From: Pigmentiphaga sp. | GTDB taxonomy: Bacteria > Pseudomonadota > Gammaproteobacteria > Burkholderiales > Burkholderiaceae_B | DNA length: 64,000 nt | Reading direction: 5' to 3' | NCBI GenBank assembly: GCA_023228945.1 | Contig: JALOAI010000027.1 | Location: forward strand, 542 to 64,541 | In this document: positions 23,568 through 33,346 of the stretch, one piece after another | How positions within the stretch are numbered: the stretch's first letter is position 1 | Layout of the letters: each line of letters begins with the position of its first letter | The notes under the pieces: generated by a model | The model's database searches: none | What the model was told of the DNA's origin: nothing | Seen by the model: the letters and a program-made list of their open reading frames with translations, nothing else | Position numbers and translations under genes: made by a program

Positions 23568-24866
23568 ATGAAACGCAACGTTCTGATTATCGGTGCGGGT
23601 GGTGTGGCGCATGTCGCGGCGCACAAGTGCGCCCAAAACAACATCCTGCTGGGCGACATCCACATCGCTTCGCGCACGCTGGCCAAATGCCAGGCGATCA
23701 TCGAGTCCATCAAGGAAAAAGGCAACCAGCGCGGCCCGGGCCAGCTCAAGGCCCACCAACTCGACGCCATGGATGTCGAGGCCACCAAGGCGCTGATCCG
23801 CGAGACGGGCAGCCAGATCGTCCTCAACCTCGGCTCGCCGTTCCTGAACATGTCGGTGATGACGGCGTGCATCGAAACCGGCGCGGCCTACCTGGATACC
23901 GCCATCCACGAAGATCCCAACAAAGTTTGCGAAACGCCGCCGTGGTACGCCAACTACGAATGGAAGCGTCGTGAGGCTTGCCGCGAGGCCGGCGTTACCA
24001 CGATCCTGGGCGTGGGTTTCGATCCCGGCGTGGTCAACGCCTATGGACGTTTCGCGCTGGATACCTATTTCGACGAGGTCGAGTCCATCGATATCATCGA
24101 TATCAATGCGGGCAGCCACGGTCGATACTTCGCTACCAACTTCGATCCCGAGATCAACTTCCGCGAGTTCACCGAAACGGTCTGGTCGTGGGAGAACGGC
24201 AAGTGGAAGGCCAACGAAATGTTCGAGCACCGCAAAGACTGGGACATGCCCATGGTGGGCAAAAGCACGACGTATCTCACCGGCCACGACGAACTGCATT
24301 CCATGTCCAAGAACCTGGGTGTGCCCAACATCCGCTTCTGGATGGGTTTCGGCGATCACTACATCAATGTGTTCACGGTGCTCAAGAACCTCGGCCTGCT
24401 CTCCGAGAAGCCGGTGCGTACCGCCGAAGGCCTGGAAGTCGTGCCGCTCAAGGTCGTCAAGGCCGTTCTGCCCGACCCCGCTTCACTCGCGCCGGGCTAC
24501 AGCGGCAAAACCTGCATCGGCGATCTGGTCAAGGGCACGAAAAACGGCGAGCCGCGTGAAGTACTCATCTACAACATCTGCGACCACAAGCAGAGCTATG
24601 CAGAAGTCGGCAGCCAGGCGATCTCCTACACGGCGGGCGTACCCGCGGTGGCTGCGGCGATGCTGATCGCCGATGGCGTATGGGACGTCGGCCAGATGGT
24701 CAACGTCGAAGAGCTCGATCCCAAGCCGTTCATCGAATTGATGAACCGGATCGGACTGGTCACCCGCGTGCGCGACGAGCGAGGCGACCGCGTGCTGGAT
24801 CCGGCCCAGGAAGCGCCGGCGGTGGCCAAGCACCGGGAGTCGGTGGCGGGCGTTCCCGCCGAGTAA
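23568..24866 (+). CDS. carboxynorspermidine synthase (saccharopine dehydrogenase-family, CANSDH)
   Basis: MKRNVLIIGAGGVAHVAAHKCAQ is a Rossmann fold. ...LDTAIHEDP...PPWYANYEW...GFDPGVVNA are typical of CANSDH. It sits adjacent to nspC. Confidence 0.9.
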   Translation: MKRNVLIIGAGGVAHVAAHKCAQNNILLGDIHIASRTLAKCQAIIESIKEKGNQRGPGQLKAHQLDAMDVEATKALIRETGSQIVLNLGSPFLNMSVMTACIETGAAYLDTAIHEDPNKVCETPPWYANYEWKRREACREAGVTTILGVGFDPGVVNAYGRFALDTYFDEVESIDIIDINAGSHGRYFATNFDPEINFREFTETVWSWENGKWKANEMFEHRKDWDMPMVGKSTTYLTGHDELHSMSKNLGVPNIRFWMGFGDHYINVFTVLKNLGLLSEKPVRTAEGLEVVPLKVVKAVLPDPASLAPGYSGKTCIGDLVKGTKNGEPREVLIYNICDHKQSYAEVGSQAISYTAGVPAVAAAMLIADGVWDVGQMVNVEELDPKPFIELMNRIGLVTRVRDERGDRVLDPAQEAPAVAKHRESVAGVPAE

Positions 24867-24889
24867 GCGCTGCGGCCGTCCGCGGGCGA

Positions 24890-26401
24890 TCACTCGATCC
24901 ACACGATGTCGCCCGCCGCCCGCGCATAGTCCAGCGCATAGGCAAGCTCGCCCGGCGACTGCGCATGCAGGAGCAGCAAAGGCTGGCCGGGAACCACCGT
25001 GTCGCCCAGGCGTATGTGCAGCGACACGCCGGCGGCCGGGCTTTCGGGGGCGCCGGCGAGCTTCGCCAGCCGTGAAAGCTTGCGATTATCGATGCGGGTC
25101 ACGCGGCCGTGGCGAGCGGCGGCCAGCGGCTCCACATGGCTTGCCCGTGGCGGAGTGCGCAGACCACCCTGTGCGGTACAAATGCGTTGAAAGCGCTCCC
25201 AGGCGCGGCCGTCGGCCAGCGTGTCGCTCGCCAGCCGCGGCCCATCGCCCGCCGCCGCGGCGCCACCGAGTTCCAGAACCGCGCCGGCAATCAGCACTGC
25301 GCGCTCTCGCAGATCGGGCGGCGCGTCGGGAGCGCCTTGCAGCACCGCCAGCACATCGTAGGCCTCCAGCGCGGGACCGATGCCGCGGCCCACCGGTTGC
25401 TTGCCATCGGTGAATAGGCAGCGCAGGGCCAGACCGAAATGCGCCGCGGTCTCGGACAAGCGGTCCGCGAGCTGTTGGGCCGCTTCGCGGCTGCGTACCT
25501 TGGCGGTGGGCCCGATCGGAATGTCGATCACGACGTGGGTGGCTCCGGCGGCTACCTTCTTGGACAGCACCGAGGCAACCAGTTGGCCTTCGGTGTCGAT
25601 GTCCAGTTCGCGCTCGATGCGCACGAAGTAGTCGTCGGCCGGGCTCAGGGACATCGCACCGCCCCAGACCAGGCAGCCGCCTTCGGCCTCCACCACCCGG
25701 CGCAGCTCGGCGGTATCGAGCTCCACCCGGGTCAGCGTTTCCATGGTGTCGGCCGTGCCGGCCGGCGACGTGATCGCGCGTGACGAAGTTTTGGGCATGA
25801 CCAGCCCGTTGGCGGCGGCGATGGCCACCACCAACGGCGAGGTGCGATTGCCCGGCAAGCCGCCGACACAGTGTTTGTCGACCACCACCGGCACCGGCCA
25901 CTGCAAGCGCTGGCCGACGTCGACCATCGCGCGCGTGAGATGGAAGGTCTCGTCGGCATCCAGCGGCAAGGCGGCGGTGGCCGTGAGGAAGGCCGCCAGG
26001 TGGACGTCGGTGTATCGTCCGTCGACGACGTCGCGAACGATGGCGTCGAGGTCCTGCGCGCTCAGGCGCTGGCCGTGGATCCGCCGGCGGACCCCGGCCA
26101 GCGAGGGCAGCATCGGCGAGTGCCGAACCATGACGTTGTCGCCCTCGCGAAGGGCCAAGGCCTGCCAGGCGGCTTCCGACAGCGCGACCTGGCCGGGCGC
26201 GAGCAGCTCGCCATCGATCTGATAGAGCAGGGCTTGCACTTCGCGCCCGCCCGACGTGATCAGCACCTGGGAGCGCGGGGCCAGCCCTTCGGCATGGCCA
26301 ACGTGGCAATCGGTGCGCATCAGGGCGATGGGCTGATGCTGGGTGTGCAGGCGCAAGCGGGTGGCGCGCAGGGGCGGCGGTGGCCGCGGCCTATCGTTCA
26401 C
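24890..26401 (-). CDS. thymidine phosphorylase-family protein, archaeal-type/AMP-phosphorylase-like branch (503 aa)
   Basis: VDKHCVGGLPGNRTSPLVVAIAAANGLVMPKTSSRAITSPAGTADTMETL. The GG.PGN.. and KTSSRAITSPAGTAD motifs resemble the archaeal AMP phosphorylase branch as I recall it. The GTG start overlaps the upstream stop (GTGA). Confidence 0.8.
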   Translation of the reverse strand: MNDRPRPPPPLRATRLRLHTQHQPIALMRTDCHVGHAEGLAPRSQVLITSGGREVQALLYQIDGELLAPGQVALSEAAWQALALREGDNVMVRHSPMLPSLAGVRRRIHGQRLSAQDLDAIVRDVVDGRYTDVHLAAFLTATAALPLDADETFHLTRAMVDVGQRLQWPVPVVVDKHCVGGLPGNRTSPLVVAIAAANGLVMPKTSSRAITSPAGTADTMETLTRVELDTAELRRVVEAEGGCLVWGGAMSLSPADDYFVRIERELDIDTEGQLVASVLSKKVAAGATHVVIDIPIGPTAKVRSREAAQQLADRLSETAAHFGLALRCLFTDGKQPVGRGIGPALEAYDVLAVLQGAPDAPPDLRERAVLIAGAVLELGGAAAAGDGPRLASDTLADGRAWERFQRICTAQGGLRTPPRASHVEPLAAARHGRVTRIDNRKLSRLAKLAGAPESPAAGVSLHIRLGDTVVPGQPLLLLHAQSPGELAYALDYARAAGDIVWIE

Positions 26402-27756
26402 AGTTCGAACTCCTGGTTCTGCAAGGGCACCGAAGCCGGCCAGCCGAGCTCGCGCCCGATGCGTTCGCGCAGGGCTTCGGAGGCCGTGGGCTCGCCGTGG
26501 ACGATGAACACGCGCCGCGGCGCGTGCTGGAAGCCCGAAAGCCAGCGCAGCAGCTCGTTGCTATCGGCGTGGGCCGACAGCATGGGCAACTCGGCGATCT
26601 CGGCATTGATCGGTACCCATTGGCCATAGGCCTTGGTTTCGCGGGCGCCATCGAGCAGCTTGCGCCCGCGCGTGCCCGCCGCCTGGAAGCCCGAAAAGAG
26701 CAGGGTATTCTGGTGGCCGGGCCCGAAAGCGGCGATATGGTGCAGCACCCGCCCGCCGGTGGCCATGCCGCTGGCCGAAAGAATCACTTTAGGAAAGCGG
26801 CTGGCCGACAAAGCCTTCGACTCCTCCACGTCGCGCACATAGGTAACGGCATTGCAGGCGGCTTCGTAGTCGCGGGCGGCCAGCTTGTGTTCGGCGGCGT
26901 GGCGATGCAGCAGTTCGGTGGCGCTGGTGGCCATGGGACTGTCGAGATAGACCGGAATATTGCGCAGGCCGCCACGCTGGCGCAGCAGCCAGAGATCATG
27001 GATCAACGACTGCGCCCGGCCAACGGCGAAAGCCGGGATCACCACCGTGCCGCCGCGCTGCACGGTGCGCTCGATGATTTCACCCAGGGCTTCGACAGGG
27101 TCGGAGCGATCATGGACTCGATCGCCGTAGGTCGATTCGACGACGATGTAGTCGGCCTCTGGAACAGGCTCGGGGTCGTGCAGGATCGGGTCGTCGTAGC
27201 GGCCGAGATCACCCGAAAACACGATGCGCTTGCCGCCGATGTCGATCTGGACCGTGGTCGCGCCCAGGATATGGCCGGCGCGGCGCAGCAAGAGCCTGGC
27301 GCCGCCGGGCAAGGCGGCTTCACGATGCAACGGCGTGGCCTGGAACCGCGACAGTGTGCGCTCCGCGTCTTTTACCCGGTACAAGGGCAAGGCTGGCTGG
27401 TGCTTGGAGAACCCTTTGCGGTTGGCGAACTCCGCGTCTTTCTCCTGCAGCCAGGCGCTGTCGAGGAGGATCAGTTCGGCCACGTCGCGGGTGGCGGGAG
27501 TGGCGAAGACGGGGCCCGCAAAGCCGTCGAGCATCAAGCGCGGCAGATAACCGCAATGGTCCAGGTGGCCGTGAGTCAGGACGACCGCATCGATATCGCG
27601 CGGGGGCACGGACAGCCGCTGCCAGTTGAGTTCGCGCAGATTCTTCAGACCCTGGAAGAGTCCGCAGTCGACCAGAATGCGGGTGTCGTTAAAGGTCAGG
27701 AGGTGTTTGGAGCCGGTGACCGTGCCAGCGCCGCCGAGGCTGGTGAAGGTGAGCAT
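26398..27756 (-). CDS. MBL-fold beta-CASP family hydrolase (RNA-metabolising nuclease type)
   Basis: VDCGLFQG...VVLTHGHLDHCGYLP (HxHxDH), ...VVESTYGDR..., ...SAHADSNELLRWL... Start at the internal ATG 27756 (MLTFTSLGGAG). Confidence 0.85.
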   Translation of the reverse strand: MLTFTSLGGAGTVTGSKHLLTFNDTRILVDCGLFQGLKNLRELNWQRLSVPPRDIDAVVLTHGHLDHCGYLPRLMLDGFAGPVFATPATRDVAELILLDSAWLQEKDAEFANRKGFSKHQPALPLYRVKDAERTLSRFQATPLHREAALPGGARLLLRRAGHILGATTVQIDIGGKRIVFSGDLGRYDDPILHDPEPVPEADYIVVESTYGDRVHDRSDPVEALGEIIERTVQRGGTVVIPAFAVGRAQSLIHDLWLLRQRGGLRNIPVYLDSPMATSATELLHRHAAEHKLAARDYEAACNAVTYVRDVEESKALSASRFPKVILSASGMATGGRVLHHIAAFGPGHQNTLLFSGFQAAGTRGRKLLDGARETKAYGQWVPINAEIAELPMLSAHADSNELLRWLSGFQHAPRRVFIVHGEPTASEALRERIGRELGWPASVPLQNQEFEL

Positions 27757-27788
27757 GAGGTTTCTTCTTTGAGGACTGGGAATCCGCG

Positions 27789-30164
27789 TCAGGCGCCGCT
27801 GGCGATGTCGGCCGGATTGCCGATGCCATCCAGGGCGCGCCGGAAGACGGCGTCGAGAACGTCGTCCCGCCGCCAGGAAGCGACGGCGGCCGCCGCTTCT
27901 ACCGCGTGGGCCCAGGTGCAGCGGTTGGCGAACAACATGCCGGGAACGTCGAGCGTGCCGCCGCGGCTGATATAGCCCAGGGCGCGGGTCTTGGCCGGCC
28001 CGTCGTCGAGGCGGCGCAGGATGCCGAGCATGGGCTCGGGCCGGGTATGGCTGAGCAGGACTCGTGGCAGGCCCGGCGGAAACAGGGCGTGCAGGGTGTC
28101 GTCGCGATCCACGAAGCGGGCTTCCCAGGCATCGCGCGGCAGGCGCAGCCGGCCGGGCTCGATCACCACGCTGACGCACGACGCGCGACCCAGCCGTGCC
28201 AGGTGGTCATGCGCCTTGAGGGCTTCCTCCAACTGATAGGCGCCGATGGCGACGAATTGCACTTCGGCCCGGGCGGGATCGCCGGCGACGAGTGCCGCGC
28301 CTTGTTCGATCAACGCCTGCGCCGCCGCGGCGTCGAAACGGTGTGCGACGTCGCGTTTGGATACCACCACGCAAGCCACTTGCCCGCGTCCCGCATAGAC
28401 GTCGCGCAGCGCGGCCATCGCGGTGTTGCCGTCCACCGGGAACAGCACGCGCGCGGTGTCCGACATTTCGCCCAGCAAGGCCTCGCCGATGGAGGGATCC
28501 TGGTGCGATTGTTCGTTTTTGGCGTTCTCCCATGTGTGCGAGGTGACGATCAAGGGCACCGACAGCCAGCCGGGCGGCTGGCCGATCTCGGTCTGGCGCC
28601 GGGCAAAGATGACTTCCTGGCGTAAAAGACCCAGCATTTTCATGGCGAAGGCTTCGTAGCTGACGATCAGATTCAGCCCGCCTTTGTTGCCCAGCGCCGC
28701 GCCCGCCACGGCTTCTTCATTGAGCGCGGTGATCACCGCGCCGTCCAGGGCCTCGGGCACGCCGGCCTCGGGCTCGTTGACTCGATGCTTGAGCAGCGCC
28801 AGCGTGTCTCCCATCTTGTTGCTGGCCAGTTCGTCGGGGTTGCCGACACGGATGCGCAGGGCGGGATTGGCCCGGGCCAGCGCGACGAACCAGCCGTCGA
28901 GGGCAGCCATGGCGCTGCCCTCGTCTCCTGTCGGCTCCCAGGCTGGCTCGGGCAGCACAGGGGTGGCGGGATGGCGATGGGCCATGGGATGCGCGCTTTC
29001 GGGACGCCGCTGGGTCCGGGCATGGTTGGCGAGGGTCGCGAGCGCGGCGTCCAGTTCGGCGGGGGCGACGAACAGCGCGCGGGCGCCGGCATTGAAGGCC
29101 TCGCGCGCGGGAGCGTCCCGCCGGGGGTTGCCCGCCAGCGGCAGGTTGTGGGCGGCATTGGTACCCGCTCCCGGAAAGCCGAAGCCCTTTTCGGTTTCGG
29201 CGATCACATAAGGCAGGGGCGCCGGATATCGGCGCTGGGGATGACTGGCGAACCGCTGCAAGGCCTCCTCGGCATGGATGATGGCCCAGGCGAAAGCGGC
29301 GGGGTCGCGGCCGTCGATGATCACCGGATCGAAGCCGTTGTGGCGCAGGTCTTCGGCCAGCCAGGGGGCGCCGCCTTCCTGCACGATCTGCGTGCGCTGC
29401 TCGATCCGGCGGCCATTGAGAATCATCACCGGCACCGCGAAACCGCTGTCGTTGGTGCGCCACCAGCGCGTGGCCCAGTCGGAGCCCCGCTGTTCTTCGA
29501 AGGCGCCATCGCTGAGGAAGGCGACCAGGCGCTCGCCCGGCAGCGGCATATGGATGTACTGCAACTCGGCGAAGCCGAGATAGCCGCCTTCGGATATCGC
29601 GCCCGCCGTGTTGGGGCCGGCGTGGCTGCCCACCGGAACGGCCGGATGGCCGAAGCTGTCGATGGCATAGGAATAAAAATCGCGGATCAGTTGCGACAGG
29701 CCGGCCTCGCTGCGATCGTAGCGGCCGCGCTGGGCCGGCGAGAGATCGCCCGTGAGTGCGTTGACGGCCTCGATCGCCGCCACGCAGTGGCCCTGGCCCA
29801 TCAGCCAGCCGCGGGTATGGCCGGTAAGCGCGTTGGCCAGCAAATATCCGACGAAGGCCGGCACCATGTTCAGCGAGCCGCCGGTGTGGCCTTCGGGTGT
29901 GGGTTTGAAGTCGTTGGCTGTCAGAGGTTCGCCCGCGAGGTTGATGCGCAGGGCGTAGGTCATGTGGGCCACCACGTTCATCGCCATGCAGGCCAGTCGA
30001 TCGGCCGCCGCCAGCAGGGCGTAGGCGTCGTCGAGGCCGCCCAGGCGATTATCGGCCGCCAGGCGGGCGACCATCGCTTCGATGCGCTCCACGGTAGTGG
30101 GCGCGTGGCTGATGGGGCCATGGCCGGCGCGCCAACGCGACCGCGGATCGGGCTGTGGATTCAT
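27789..30164 (-). CDS. phosphoketolase-family ThDP enzyme, divergent (791 aa)
   Basis: Length and colinearity fit Xfp. The PROSITE-type signatures are altered, however: ISEGGYLGF instead of EGGELGY, and LSDGAFEE instead of GDGE. Confidence 0.8.
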   Translation of the reverse strand: MNPQPDPRSRWRAGHGPISHAPTTVERIEAMVARLAADNRLGGLDDAYALLAAADRLACMAMNVVAHMTYALRINLAGEPLTANDFKPTPEGHTGGSLNMVPAFVGYLLANALTGHTRGWLMGQGHCVAAIEAVNALTGDLSPAQRGRYDRSEAGLSQLIRDFYSYAIDSFGHPAVPVGSHAGPNTAGAISEGGYLGFAELQYIHMPLPGERLVAFLSDGAFEEQRGSDWATRWWRTNDSGFAVPVMILNGRRIEQRTQIVQEGGAPWLAEDLRHNGFDPVIIDGRDPAAFAWAIIHAEEALQRFASHPQRRYPAPLPYVIAETEKGFGFPGAGTNAAHNLPLAGNPRRDAPAREAFNAGARALFVAPAELDAALATLANHARTQRRPESAHPMAHRHPATPVLPEPAWEPTGDEGSAMAALDGWFVALARANPALRIRVGNPDELASNKMGDTLALLKHRVNEPEAGVPEALDGAVITALNEEAVAGAALGNKGGLNLIVSYEAFAMKMLGLLRQEVIFARRQTEIGQPPGWLSVPLIVTSHTWENAKNEQSHQDPSIGEALLGEMSDTARVLFPVDGNTAMAALRDVYAGRGQVACVVVSKRDVAHRFDAAAAQALIEQGAALVAGDPARAEVQFVAIGAYQLEEALKAHDHLARLGRASCVSVVIEPGRLRLPRDAWEARFVDRDDTLHALFPPGLPRVLLSHTRPEPMLGILRRLDDGPAKTRALGYISRGGTLDVPGMLFANRCTWAHAVEAAAAVASWRRDDVLDAVFRRALDGIGNPADIASGA

Positions 30165-30199
30165 GGTGCTGTGCCTCCCGGGTGCTACGGTTGTTCTGG

Positions 30200-30952
30200 T
30201 CAGGCCGCGGTGTAGCCGCCGTCGGCGAGCAAGGCGCTACCGGTCACGAAGCTGGCGGCATCGGAGAGCAGGAAGGCGACGGCATGGGCGATTTCGTCGG
30301 GTCGGCCCAGGCGGCCGATGGGGTGGCGGCTGACCAGTCCCGCGCGGGTATCGGCGTCCAGGCCATCGAGGATCGGGGTTTCCACATAGCCGGGATGAAT
30401 GGAGTTGATGCGGATGCCCCGGGCGGAATAGGCCAGCGCCGCCGAGCGCGTGAGCCCCGTGACGCCGTGCTTGGCGGCGACATAGGCGGTGGCGTGGGCG
30501 TCGCCCACCACACCCAGAATGGACGACATGTTGACGATGGCGCCGCCGCCGGCGTCCAGAATGGCGGGAATCTGATAGCGCAGGCCGTGCGCGACGCCGC
30601 TGAGGTTGATATCGATCACCCGCTGCCAATCGGCCTCGGGGAGTTCGCCCGCCGGGAGCAGGGCGCCGCCGATGCCGGCATTATTGAAGGCGAAGTGCAG
30701 GGCTCCGAAGGTTTTCACCGCGAGCTCGACCGCCGCCTCGACTTGAGCCGCCCGGGCGACGTCGGTCACATTGGGCACGGCGCTGCCGCCGGCGGCGACG
30801 ATGGCCTCGGCGACGCGAGCCGCCGCATCGGCCTGGACGTCGGAGACGACGACATTCAAGCCATTGGCGGCCAGCAGGCGGGCGGTGGCTTCGCCGATGC
30901 CCGAGGCGGCACCGGTAACCAGCACGGTTTTGCCGGAAAACGAATACTTCAT
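30200..30952 (-). CDS. SDR-family oxidoreductase
   Basis: KTVLVTGAASGIGEA, NNAG, SSILGVVGDAHATAYVAAKHG (S...YxxxK). Confidence 0.85.
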   Translation of the reverse strand: MKYSFSGKTVLVTGAASGIGEATARLLAANGLNVVVSDVQADAAARVAEAIVAAGGSAVPNVTDVARAAQVEAAVELAVKTFGALHFAFNNAGIGGALLPAGELPEADWQRVIDINLSGVAHGLRYQIPAILDAGGGAIVNMSSILGVVGDAHATAYVAAKHGVTGLTRSAALAYSARGIRINSIHPGYVETPILDGLDADTRAGLVSRHPIGRLGRPDEIAHAVAFLLSDAASFVTGSALLADGGYTAA

Positions 30953-31102
30953 GGGAACACTCCTTTCAGCGCAGGGCGCGGCACGCACGCGGAGCGAGGT
31001 GCCGCGGGAAGCCGGCGCCAGCGGTGGAACCCTGGCGCTTGCGCCGACGTTACCATGACGCCATGGCGAGCAGGAGAGGGCGCGCGGGCGGCCAGGGCCG
31101 CG

Positions 31103-31939
31103 TTACGGCTGCGGCCTTGCGCCGGACTCCGGCTCCTCCTTCGGTTCGGCCCCGGATCCCGGTAGAAACGCGCGTGGCGTCACGCCCAAGGTGCGGCGGA
31201 ACATCGTCGAGAAGGCACTGGGGCTGTCATAGCCGAGATCCAGGGCGACGCGCGTTACCGCGTCACCCGCGCTGAGCCGGCGAACCGCGTGAAGCAGGCA
31301 GGCCTGTTTGCGCCACTGCACGAAGCTGAGACCGGTTTCGGCCTGGAACCGGCGGTACAGTGTCCGGGCGCTGGCCACCGCCGGCCCTTCATCGCCGCGA
31401 CGTGCCGGTTGTTGCATCAGCTTGTCGCACATTTCGAGCAGATCAGGGCTGGAGGGCAAGGGCAACTCGAGCGCGCAGATGGGCAGCCGGCTGATTTCAA
31501 GCACCGTCAGGCGTCCGATCAGATCGGCGGCTTGCTCATGGCCAGCCAGATCGTCCGAGGTGATGCGCAGGATCAGTTCGCGCAGCAACGGCGTCACGTC
31601 GAGCGCGACGCAGCGCCGGGGCAGGCTTTCGGCGCTGGCGGCATTCAGATAAAGCGAGCGCATTTGCAATTCGCCATGCGCATCGATCGCATGTTCCAGC
31701 CCCGCCGGGATCCACAGGGCGCGGCTGGGCGGCACCAGCCAGGCGTGGCCGGCGGTCCGCACGAACATGGTGCCGGCGGTGGCGAACAGAAACTGACCGC
31801 GCGGATGGCGGTGGGGAGCGATGTGGGTGCCGGCAGGAAAGGCCTCGCGCTTCGCCACCAGCAGCGGTCCTTCATCGGCCGCCGGCAAGGGAAAGGGGCT
31901 GCCCGTGGGCGGGCCGCCGTGTACGACCAGCATGTCCAT
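31103..31939 (-). CDS. AraC-family regulator with N-terminal cupin domain
   Basis: PHRHPRGQFLFATAG is cupin-like. The C-terminal sequence VALDLGYDSPSAFSTMFRRTLGVTPRAF is an AraC HTH. Only the last 278 codons of track ORF 31103..32740 are credited. Confidence 0.8.
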   Translation of the reverse strand: MDMLVVHGGPPTGSPFPLPAADEGPLLVAKREAFPAGTHIAPHRHPRGQFLFATAGTMFVRTAGHAWLVPPSRALWIPAGLEHAIDAHGELQMRSLYLNAASAESLPRRCVALDVTPLLRELILRITSDDLAGHEQAADLIGRLTVLEISRLPICALELPLPSSPDLLEMCDKLMQQPARRGDEGPAVASARTLYRRFQAETGLSFVQWRKQACLLHAVRRLSAGDAVTRVALDLGYDSPSAFSTMFRRTLGVTPRAFLPGSGAEPKEEPESGARPQP

Positions 31940-32002
31940 TTTGCGATGATATGGCAGAAAATATCGAAAGACGGTTAGCGCCAACTTTGCCAGACTAACG
32001 GC

Positions 32003-33346
32003 ATGAAGACAAAGAACGCAATGCCGACCCTGCCCCTCGCCTTGGCCGGCGACTCTATCGCCATGCGGCGGTCCTCCTCCGGCGATCCTGGCGGACCCGG
32101 CGCCGTCCAGCCTGCCCTCGTTCCGGCGGCCGGCCTCGGCCAAGATGCCGGAATCCCCGACCATCCCCGCGATGTGGCGTTGCTGCTCAACATCGCCCAC
32201 GCCCTCGATCATTTGTTCCTCTTGATCTTCGCCACCGCCGTGGGCGCCATCGCCGCCGAGTTCGGATTTTCCAACTGGGAAGACCTGATGCCGTACAGCG
32301 TGGGAGCCTTCCTGCTGTTCGGCCTGGGCGCCGTGCCAGCCGGACGTCTCGGCGATCTGTGGGGGCGGCGGCCCATGATGCTGATCTTTTTCTTCGGCCT
32401 GGGGGCGGCGGCGCTGCTCACGGCCTTGGCGCAGGGGCCTTGGCAATTGGCCGGGGGCCTGGCGCTGATCGGCCTCTTCGCCGCGATCTACCACCCGGTC
32501 GGTATTCCCATGCTGGTGCAGCGGACCAGCCGGCCGGGCGTGGTCATCGGCATCAACGGCCTGGCCGGCAACCTTGGCGTGGCGGGCGCGGCGTTGCTCA
32601 CGGGCCTTCTGGTTCAATGGTGGGGGTGGCGCGCGGCTTTTGTCGTTCCCGGGCTGGCGTCGCTGGCGTGCGGCGTGCTGTTTGCCATGCGCTGCGGCCC
32701 GCAGGGGCCGGCACCGGGCCGCACCCGCAAACCGCCTCAAGTGGTGCTGTCGCCCACCGACCTGGCGCGCGCCTTGTTCGTCATGACGGCGGCGGCGATC
32801 ACGAGCGCCTTGCTTTTCAACTTCACCACCAACGGCAACACACAGTTCATGGTCGAACGCTTCGACGGCCTGATCCAGAATCCCGCGATGATCGGCCTGC
32901 TGTTGGCCGTGATCTATACCTTGGCATCACTGACACAGGTGGTAGTGGGGCATTGGATCGACAGAATCCCGCTCAAGCGTCTGTATTTCGTCATGGTGCT
33001 GGCGCAGATCCCGTGGCTGGCGCTGTCGGCGGTGGCCAGCGGCTGGTGGCTCTTCGCCGCCCTGCTCGGCGTGATGGTGTTCATTTTCGGCTGCATTCCC
33101 TTTACCGATGCCATGATCGTGAAGTACGTAGACGACAGCGTGCGTTCTCGTGTGGCGGGTATGCGGCTGGCGGTGTCTTTCGGGGTGAGTTCGCTGGCGG
33201 TGTGGCTGCTCGGCCCGGTGGTCAAAGCCTCGAGCTTCACCTCGTTGTTCCTGGCCATGACGGTCATCGCGGCCGCCACGGCGGCGCTGGTCTTGATGTT
33301 GCCGTCGGACGCAACTGCCGTGCGCGCGGCGCGCACCGAGACGTAA
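32003..33346 (+). CDS. MFS transporter
   Basis: GRLGDLWGRRPMM loop motif with 12-TM-like hydrophobicity. Divergent from the AraC gene. Confidence 0.8.
   Translation: MKTKNAMPTLPLALAGDSIAMRRSSSGDPGGPGAVQPALVPAAGLGQDAGIPDHPRDVALLLNIAHALDHLFLLIFATAVGAIAAEFGFSNWEDLMPYSVGAFLLFGLGAVPAGRLGDLWGRRPMMLIFFFGLGAAALLTALAQGPWQLAGGLALIGLFAAIYHPVGIPMLVQRTSRPGVVIGINGLAGNLGVAGAALLTGLLVQWWGWRAAFVVPGLASLACGVLFAMRCGPQGPAPGRTRKPPQVVLSPTDLARALFVMTAAAITSALLFNFTTNGNTQFMVERFDGLIQNPAMIGLLLAVIYTLASLTQVVVGHWIDRIPLKRLYFVMVLAQIPWLALSAVASGWWLFAALLGVMVFIFGCIPFTDAMIVKYVDDSVRSRVAGMRLAVSFGVSSLAVWLLGPVVKASSFTSLFLAMTVIAAATAALVLMLPSDATAVRAARTET

Follow-up and report, generated by a model that had tools for sequence, protein, structure and literature searches.

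The 64,000-nucleotide (nt) stretch of Pigmentiphaga sp. DNA analysed here (hereafter the window; GenBank assembly GCA_023228945.1, contig JALOAI010000027.1), which derives from a metagenome-assembled genome (MAG), carries on its minus strand a compact block encoding a short-chain dehydrogenase/reductase (SDR), a divergent phosphoketolase-fold thiamine diphosphate (ThDP) enzyme (hereafter the ketolase), a beta-CASP nuclease and an archaeal-type phosphorylase. Judged by gene content and order across related loci, this block is a pared-down version of a mobile module that is widespread in proteobacteria and consists of two separable units that have been fused repeatedly: nuclease plus phosphorylase, with or without a special phosphoribosyl pyrophosphate (PRPP) synthase paralogue (Prs), and ketolase, with or without acetate kinase (AckA). 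We tentatively propose, with somewhat less than even confidence, that the module provides a modular route from RNA or nucleotides to acetyl-phosphate, with substrates, a flux between the enzymes and an inducing condition that we infer. The genes and junctions concerned are the following:

24890 to 26401, minus strand: phosphorylase gene, archaeal-type NP-II of glycosyltransferase family 3 (503 amino acids, GTG start)
26398 to 26401, minus strand: GTGA in which the stop codon of the nuclease gene and the start codon of the phosphorylase gene overlap, as seen in the sequence itself
26398 to 27756, minus strand: beta-CASP metallo-beta-lactamase (MBL) nuclease gene of the TTHA0252/CPSF73 type (452 amino acids)
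27789 to 30164, minus strand: gene for the divergent phosphoketolase-fold ThDP enzyme (791 amino acids)
30200 to 30952, minus strand: SDR oxidoreductase gene, first of the co-directional block (250 amino acids)
31103 to 31939, minus strand: AraC-family regulator gene, upstream of the block and co-directional with it, 150 nt before the SDR start

All four block genes are intact and co-directional in the window sequence and are flanked by the AraC-type gene and by a convergent polyamine gene, whose end lies 23 nt from the phosphorylase stop codon. An original prediction, made from the window sequence, had described three adjacent minus-strand genes as a translationally coupled trio. Its coordinates, a 32-nt gap and the GTGA overlap were all found in the sequence, and the motifs that it quoted (ISEGGYLGF, LSDGAFEE, GGLPGNRTS and KTSSRAITSPAGTADTME) are each present in the translations; it had missed the upstream SDR gene, which makes the block one of four genes. 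The ketolase gene ends with TGA at 27791-27789, 32 nt from the nuclease ATG at 27756 (with a 453-residue query begun one codon upstream, orthologue alignments start at residue 2), a gap that is compatible with an operon and not with coupling. An overlap exists at the last junction alone, where the phosphorylase GTG (26401-26399) overlaps the nuclease TGA (26400-26398) and is preceded by AGGAG at 26414-26410, 8 nt 5' of the GTG. Further upstream, the spacing between the SDR stop codon and the ketolase ATG is 35 nt, and GGGAGG precedes this ATG by 9 nt.

A scan of species-representative genomes for the ketolase yielded at least 576 carriers; locus counts given below refer to the closest 80 loci, and gene-order counts to the 69 of these with enough downstream DNA. 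The order ketolase, nuclease, phosphorylase (XFP>MBL>TP) is kept in 49/69 loci from alpha-, beta- and gammaproteobacteria, including Variovorax, Thauera, Achromobacter, Luteimonas, Brevundimonas, Mesorhizobium, Xanthobacter, Paracoccus and Hyphomonas, and the identities of the three proteins to those of the window co-vary across related loci (r = 0.93-0.96). Co-conservation of the three genes, on which the original prediction depended, is borne out by this co-linear unit. Several gene orders occur, namely XFP-MBL-TP, Prs-XFP-MBL-TP, MBL-TP-Prs-XFP (genomes G155, G198 and G218) and MBL-TP-Prs-XFP-AckA (G009). It is extremely unlikely that unrelated genes became adjacent by chance or by hitch-hiking on a mobile island: the context of the block does differ in each genus and often includes metal-resistance neighbourhoods, as such an origin would predict, but order and spacing are retained in those 49 loci and the adjacency survives rearrangement. 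Gene integrity, conserved synteny and mobility, like the family assignments and the fold described below, are direct observations.

Among 41 relatives of the source genome, the co-linear trio was found in three other genera, with a fourth genus carrying a rearranged version in which the nuclease gene is broken. Within this set, same-genus genomes encode a ketolase of only 60-62% identity and no phosphorylase, and an 80% identical ketolase is found in a different genus, which points to horizontal transfer. The tight spacing, the GTGA overlap with its AGGAG site and the failure to find a convincing internal terminator are in line with a single operon, which we take to have been acquired horizontally. 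In loci L019-L024 (Variovorax, Azonexus, Thauera, Parapusillimonas and an 'Anaerolineae' MAG), identities to the window proteins and intergenic spacing are equal, and one ketolase sequence (P0122) is listed as MULTISPECIES on 124 contigs, so that these loci point to the very recent spread of a single mobile element. Near-identical DNA (at least half of the sampled words from 24890-31000) also turned up outside the probable source sample, in metagenome runs of landfill, fertilizer or unspecified origin that belong to three studies. Neighbours of the module in L011-L090 include a P-type ATPase (20/80), a multicopper oxidase, HlyD/RND, MgtC and LpxR, giving the look of a metal-resistance island; the window copy does not lie beside metal-resistance content. 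Some copies are disrupted, with a TAA in the nuclease gene of G009 (C1:944241-945580), an in-frame TGA in the ketolase gene of G155 (C1:1740308-1742656) and single stops in several Prs copies (G083, G127, G195 and G198).

The phosphorylase contains the Pfam domains Glycos_trans_3N, Glycos_transf_3 and PYNP_C and exceeds the cut-offs of TIGR02645 ('putative thymidine phosphorylase'; 572.8 versus 434.6 bits) and of NF003338, which also bears the thymidine phosphorylase name (664 versus 434 bits). Its best solved relative is the AMP/nucleoside monophosphate (NMP) phosphorylase of Thermococcus kodakarensis (4GA5; 335 bits), with thymidine and pyrimidine nucleoside phosphorylases at 135 bits or less, the human and Escherichia coli thymidine phosphorylases (TP) scoring 135 and 91 bits; the 4GA5 alignment begins within the N-terminal domain and covers part of the N-terminal extension. 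The active-site block, a motif quoted in the original prediction, is near-identical to that of the Thermococcus enzyme, which phosphorolyses AMP, CMP and UMP to ribose-1,5-bisphosphate (R15P) (PMC9700705). These results uphold the earlier placement in the archaeal AMP/NMP phosphorylase branch and not with bacterial DeoA; of the two models then named for placing the enzyme, TIGR02645 is reached and the AMP phosphorylase equivalog TIGR03327 is not. We consider it very unlikely that the annotations hold at face value, in which case the phosphorylase would simply act on thymidine or other pyrimidine nucleosides, the nuclease would repair or process nucleic acids, and neither would be linked to the ketolase. 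The names of both models and the unreached equivalog would suit such an assignment, but the score against the NMP phosphorylase lies far above the 91-135 bits obtained with true thymidine phosphorylases, no DeoB was found in the genome for the use of ribose-1-phosphate or deoxyribose-1-phosphate, and the synteny with ketolase and Prs is strongly conserved.

The nuclease scores above the Pfam cut-offs for Lactamase_B, Beta-Casp and RMMBL, and its nearest solved relative is the RNase TTHA0252 (2DKF; 233 bits), with Cas14 and CPSF73-type enzymes next in rank. Its HxHxDH, GH, GD, E, H and H motifs align with those of TTHA0252, covering MBL motifs 1-4 and beta-CASP motifs A-C. An assignment to RNase J was rejected (RNase J1 model, 18 bits versus a cut-off of 820), so that of the 'RNase J/CPSF-like' label in the original prediction only the CPSF73-like, TTHA0252-related part stands.

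The ketolase exceeds the Pfam cut-offs for PF03894 (XFP, 137 bits) and PF09364 (XFP_N, 46 bits); Pfam XFP_C was not detected in it, and every NCBIfam phosphoketolase cut-off is missed widely, the best model giving 133 bits versus 962. According to its AlphaFold (AF2) model (predicted local distance difference test 83.5, predicted template modelling score 0.86), the protein has a full-length three-domain phosphoketolase fold. The top 20 PDB matches of the model are all phosphoketolases, aligned over the full length with template modelling (TM) scores of 0.73-0.78, and transketolases reach 0.54-0.60. A HMMER alignment to the phosphoketolase of Bifidobacterium longum equates H64, H97 and H142 of the latter with H93, H126 and H181 of the ketolase, D182 and N215 with D219 and N250 of the (S)DG...N ThDP-Mg motif, the SHQVP histidine (H320) with H339, E437 and S440 with E445 and S448, and E479, Y501, N549, H553 and K605 with E483, Y503, N550, H554 and K603. 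Of the aligned residues, H64, H142, H320 and H553 were mutated in published phosphoketolase structures, as PDB titles indicate. In an alignment of 26 sequences including one canonical enzyme, all aligned ketolase residues are invariant except D219, which is nearly so. Beside the catalytic residues, several substitutions are fixed or nearly so in the clade (W65T, H152S, E156Y, Y159F, G181S, E184A and H548K in B. longum numbering). Furthermore, EGGYLGF and SDGA, invariant or nearly so across the clade, replace EGGELGY and GDGE, which we take, as quoted in the original prediction, to be the PROSITE phosphoketolase signatures; the departure from both motifs that it described is real.

Ketolase relatives fall into two groups, orthologues with 53-80% identity and canonical phosphoketolases with 30% or less, and the two types never share a genome among the 41 relatives (0/9 versus 15/32, Fisher p = 0.015, with kin being non-independent). 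No characterised member of the ketolase clade was found. In our reading, the ketolase would be a working ThDP enzyme with phosphoketolase chemistry and would, most likely, take the place of the canonical phosphoketolase. Many clade members bear the public names 'phosphoketolase family protein' or 'xylulose 5-phosphate 3-epimerase' (proteins P0004-P0123, NCBI/UniRef); the latter label misfits the fold and seems to be an error copied from record to record.

Based on these assignments, we propose the following sequence of reactions. The RNase would degrade RNA to 5'-NMPs, as suggested by its homology to TTHA0252, and the phosphorylase, by its closeness to the Thermococcus NMP phosphorylase, would use phosphate to convert NMPs or nucleosides to the free base and R15P or ribose-1-phosphate. 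The pentose phosphate would then enter the pentose-phosphate pool, a step for which there is no candidate enzyme and which constitutes a gap in the scheme. From this pool the ketolase would cleave a ketose phosphate to acetyl-phosphate, which AckA and Pta, encoded by an ackA-pta pair on contig C54 that is unlinked to the block, could convert to ATP or acetyl-CoA. Acetyl-phosphate as the ketolase product fits the genomic context, since acetate kinase is encoded beside the ketolase in many relatives, directly upstream in 14/78 loci and no more than 8 kb away in 31/80. The final steps, from ketose phosphate to ATP, thus draw support from the acetate kinase adjacency and the preserved catalytic residues. 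In this way, RNA ribose may be turned into ATP under energy stress.

The association of the genes was also viewed from the side of the phosphorylase, in 200 genomes drawn evenly from the order, 18 of which encode a TIGR02645 phosphorylase. The phosphorylase adjoins the special Prs in 15/18 of these genomes and the nuclease, directly or within about 1 kb, in 11/18; likewise, in an unbiased neighbour census, the special Prs (NF005537, 430 bits) is found in 46/50 trio loci elsewhere. Several findings weigh against the proposed route. The phosphorylase adjoins the ketolase in only 3/18 sampled genomes, with a ketolase fragment in a fourth, and no phosphoketolase was detectable with the window ketolase as query in 11/18. 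The ketolase itself occurs with AckA alone or on its own, with neither nuclease nor phosphorylase, in 13/69 loci and in 4/9 relatives. The special Prs (NF005537), the usual partner of the phosphorylase, was not found in the source genome, and in this 99.4%-complete genome no IF-2B-type R15P isomerase (PF01008), RuBisCO (PF00016), PhnN or DeoB was found either; searches of five further genomes with the module likewise gave no IF-2B (PF01008) or DeoB. Moreover, the phosphorylase scores below the TIGR03327 AMP_phos equivalog cut-off (478.9 versus 535 bits), no FNR/Anr/FixK box (TTGAT-N4-ATCAA, up to 1 mismatch) was found upstream of or near the block, and the Bradyrhizobium genes that link the module to low oxygen, described below, are matched to it by annotation names only.

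Because the two units are separable, we regard the ketolase as an optional exit from nucleotide breakdown and not as an obligatory part of it. A further step in this direction leads to an alternative in which the genes are co-regulated and share no pathway: an ordinary ketolase would serve central carbon metabolism, and nuclease plus phosphorylase would form an independent unit for RNA turnover and nucleotide recycling that yields bases and R15P and, in carriers of the special Prs, PRPP from there, the operon being shared as both activities are wanted in one stress state. We judge this to be unlikely, though deserving serious attention. It would account for the frequent pairing of the phosphorylase with Prs and nuclease and its rare pairing with the ketolase, for AckA-ketolase pairs without nuclease and phosphorylase, for the separate location of the phosphoketolase-family gene bll2518 from bll3115-3117 in Bradyrhizobium diazoefficiens (PMC6515984), and for the failure to find an enzyme linking R15P to ketose phosphates. 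Against it stand the repeated fusion of the units in several gene orders and three proteobacterial classes, and the fact that pentose phosphate is the natural substrate of phosphoketolase, so that a metabolic link requires nothing beyond the missing step.

With R15P isomerase, RuBisCO, PhnN, DeoB and the special Prs all undetected in the genome, the middle of the proposed line from RNA to acetyl-phosphate lacks an explanation. The original prediction had postulated an isomerisation at this point, for which no candidate enzyme emerged. Its broader idea, an RNA/nucleotide-to-energy line, is upheld as to the conserved trio, the archaeal-type phosphorylase and the AckA adjacency and weakened by this step and by the majority of phosphorylase genomes without a detected phosphoketolase. 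A PGM-family phosphopentomutase may be encoded in the genome. The source genome has only a housekeeping Prs (142 bits versus a cut-off of 322), as do G017 and G022, and a tblastn search of the genome with a Prs-like protein for a remnant matched only the housekeeping Prs on contig C10 and nothing on the window contig. The Prs-less copy, whose genome has no recognisable R15P or ribose-1-phosphate consumer, indicates that the trio can be maintained in the absence of the special Prs and points to where the missing chemistry must lie.

One way to close the gap within the operon would be a ketolase acting on a non-canonical substrate supplied by its neighbours, for example a ketopentose phosphorylated at position 1 or some different derivative of a pentose bisphosphate. 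The original prediction likewise raised the possibility of a substrate other than xylulose 5-phosphate or fructose 6-phosphate, which is not indicated here because every aligned catalytic residue is kept and the enzyme occurs without the nuclease and phosphorylase. The family-wide substitutions beside the catalytic residues, the scores far under every phosphoketolase model cut-off and the lack of a detectable known R15P consumer in six module-bearing genomes could all be explained by such a substrate, but it would have to be generally available, as the ketolase is often accompanied by AckA and no phosphorylase; in addition, the ketolase replaces the canonical phosphoketolase across relatives, and conversion of R15P to a ketose bisphosphate would itself need an isomerase, none of which was found. 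We consider this explanation improbable. A bolder and slightly less probable version, which we regard as a long shot, is that R15P from RNA-derived NMPs is consumed by a block-encoded activity, for which the phosphoketolase-fold enzyme in its remodelled form and the beta-CASP hydrolase are candidates; this would constitute a RuBisCO-free and isomerase-free bacterial pentose-bisphosphate route to acetyl-phosphate and ATP.

A possible inducing condition for the proposed RNA-to-acetyl-phosphate route is suggested by expression data from other proteobacteria. In B. diazoefficiens, the neighbouring genes bll3115-3117 (annotated as MBL, Prs and TP-family) and the phosphoketolase-family gene bll2518 are induced under microoxia at both the protein and the transcript level (PMC6515984), with a protein log2 fold change of 2.9 and a transcript fold change of 15.4 for bll3115, 4.4 and 7.7 for bll3116, 2.1 and 5.1 for bll3117, and 4.3 and 8.2 for bll2518; all four are marked as outside the direct FixK2 regulon (PMC6515984). 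Literature searches for these gene-type combinations together with oxygen led only to this study. The original prediction had pointed to similar genes in low-oxygen or dormancy loci of Burkholderia, which holds in part: the low-oxygen-induced lxa locus of Burkholderia cenocepacia includes a 'metal-dependent RNase', ackA and pta, and neither a phosphoketolase nor a thymidine phosphorylase is mentioned in its main-text description (PMC3721108). Most of the loci that have a ketolase and lack a downstream nuclease and phosphorylase (L011, L013, L014, L016, L018 and L038, with AckA directly upstream in 5/6) carry a nuclease paralogue (39-42% identity) about 2.6-4 kb upstream, and an ABC-2 transporter gene family is found in 15/80 related loci. 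These features recall BCAM0300-0305 of the Burkholderia lxa locus.

Regulatory features of the window block itself are sparse. FNR-type matches in the window number two, equal to the shuffle expectation; an FNR-like box with one mismatch, TTGATATCGATCAC at 30606-30619, is the sole match in the vicinity and falls inside the SDR gene, some 440 nt 5' of the ketolase start codon. An FNR-type box is present in 8/78 upstream regions of related loci versus a background of about 2%, a minority of the loci. A sigma-70 promoter and terminator scan of the block gave no more matches than shuffled sequence and no convincing internal terminator or promoter, an Rfam search of 24000-32500 returned no match, and neither did PADLOC defence models searched against the four block proteins.

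The SDR (adh_short_C2, 217 bits; no NCBIfam equivalog reached) occupies the position usually held by Prs or AckA. It probably arrived together with the block, since its closest homologues (71-76% identity) are located in module loci of other genera (L017, L019 and L023) and same-genus SDRs reach only 55-56%. The AraC-type regulator shows only weak, C-terminal matches to AraC-family helix-turn-helix models, and its orthologues in same-genus genomes (62%) adjoin neither SDR nor ketolase, leaving its link to the block unproven; its gene (31103-31939, minus strand) is divergent from an MFS transporter gene (32003-33346, plus strand). The genes flanking the window block are not common to other carriers.

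If the proposed route operates, many aerobic proteobacteria, with carriers including Achromobacter, Bordetella, Variovorax, rhizobia and Hyphomonadaceae, would be able to draw ATP from their own RNA through substrate-level phosphorylation once respiration fails, with consequences for how they persist where oxygen is scarce, as in wastewater, landfill, nodules and chronic infection. The archaeal NMP phosphorylase would, moreover, be placed in a new bacterial pathway context without RuBisCO. What this analysis adds is the sample viewed from the phosphorylase side, the Prs-less variant and the failure to detect any known consumer of R15P or ribose-1-phosphate in six carriers.

Compared with known systems, the module shares with the B. 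diazoefficiens microoxia set and the B. cenocepacia lxa locus its annotated gene types (MBL hydrolase or metal-dependent RNase, Prs, TP-family, phosphoketolase-family, ackA and pta), and differs from low-oxygen regulons in that the window has no FNR-type box, universal stress protein genes or other hypoxia-island content near the block. With the bacterial phosphoketolase pathway (Xfp plus acetate kinase; Bifidobacterium and Lactococcus enzymes, PDB 3AI7, 3AHC and 6GUA) the ketolase shares its full-length fold at the TM scores given above, the aligned catalytic His, Glu, Tyr, Asn and Lys residues, the ThDP-Mg motif and the frequency of AckA as a neighbour in relatives; from canonical phosphoketolases it is set apart by an identity of about 20-27%, altered motifs, a separate clade, missed model cut-offs and the undetected XFP_C. 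The predicted nuclease shares with Thermus thermophilus TTHA0252 and CPSF73-type nucleases the three-domain layout and all metal and beta-CASP motifs, and differs from TTHA0252 in its fixed partnership with a nucleotide phosphorylase, which is undescribed for that enzyme. In haloarchaea, NMP phosphorylase homologues are restricted to species that possess RuBisCO (PMC9700705). The archaeal NMP shunt or pentose bisphosphate pathway (PMC9700705), whose NMP phosphorylase TK0352 (PDB 4GA4-6) is the nearest solved relative of the window phosphorylase, differs in relying on an R15P isomerase (TK0185) and RuBisCO (TK2290), neither of which was found in this genome; what the two systems share is the idea of nucleotide ribose entering central metabolism, for which the bacterial module brings a beta-CASP RNase, a special Prs and a phosphoketolase-fold enzyme as partners instead.

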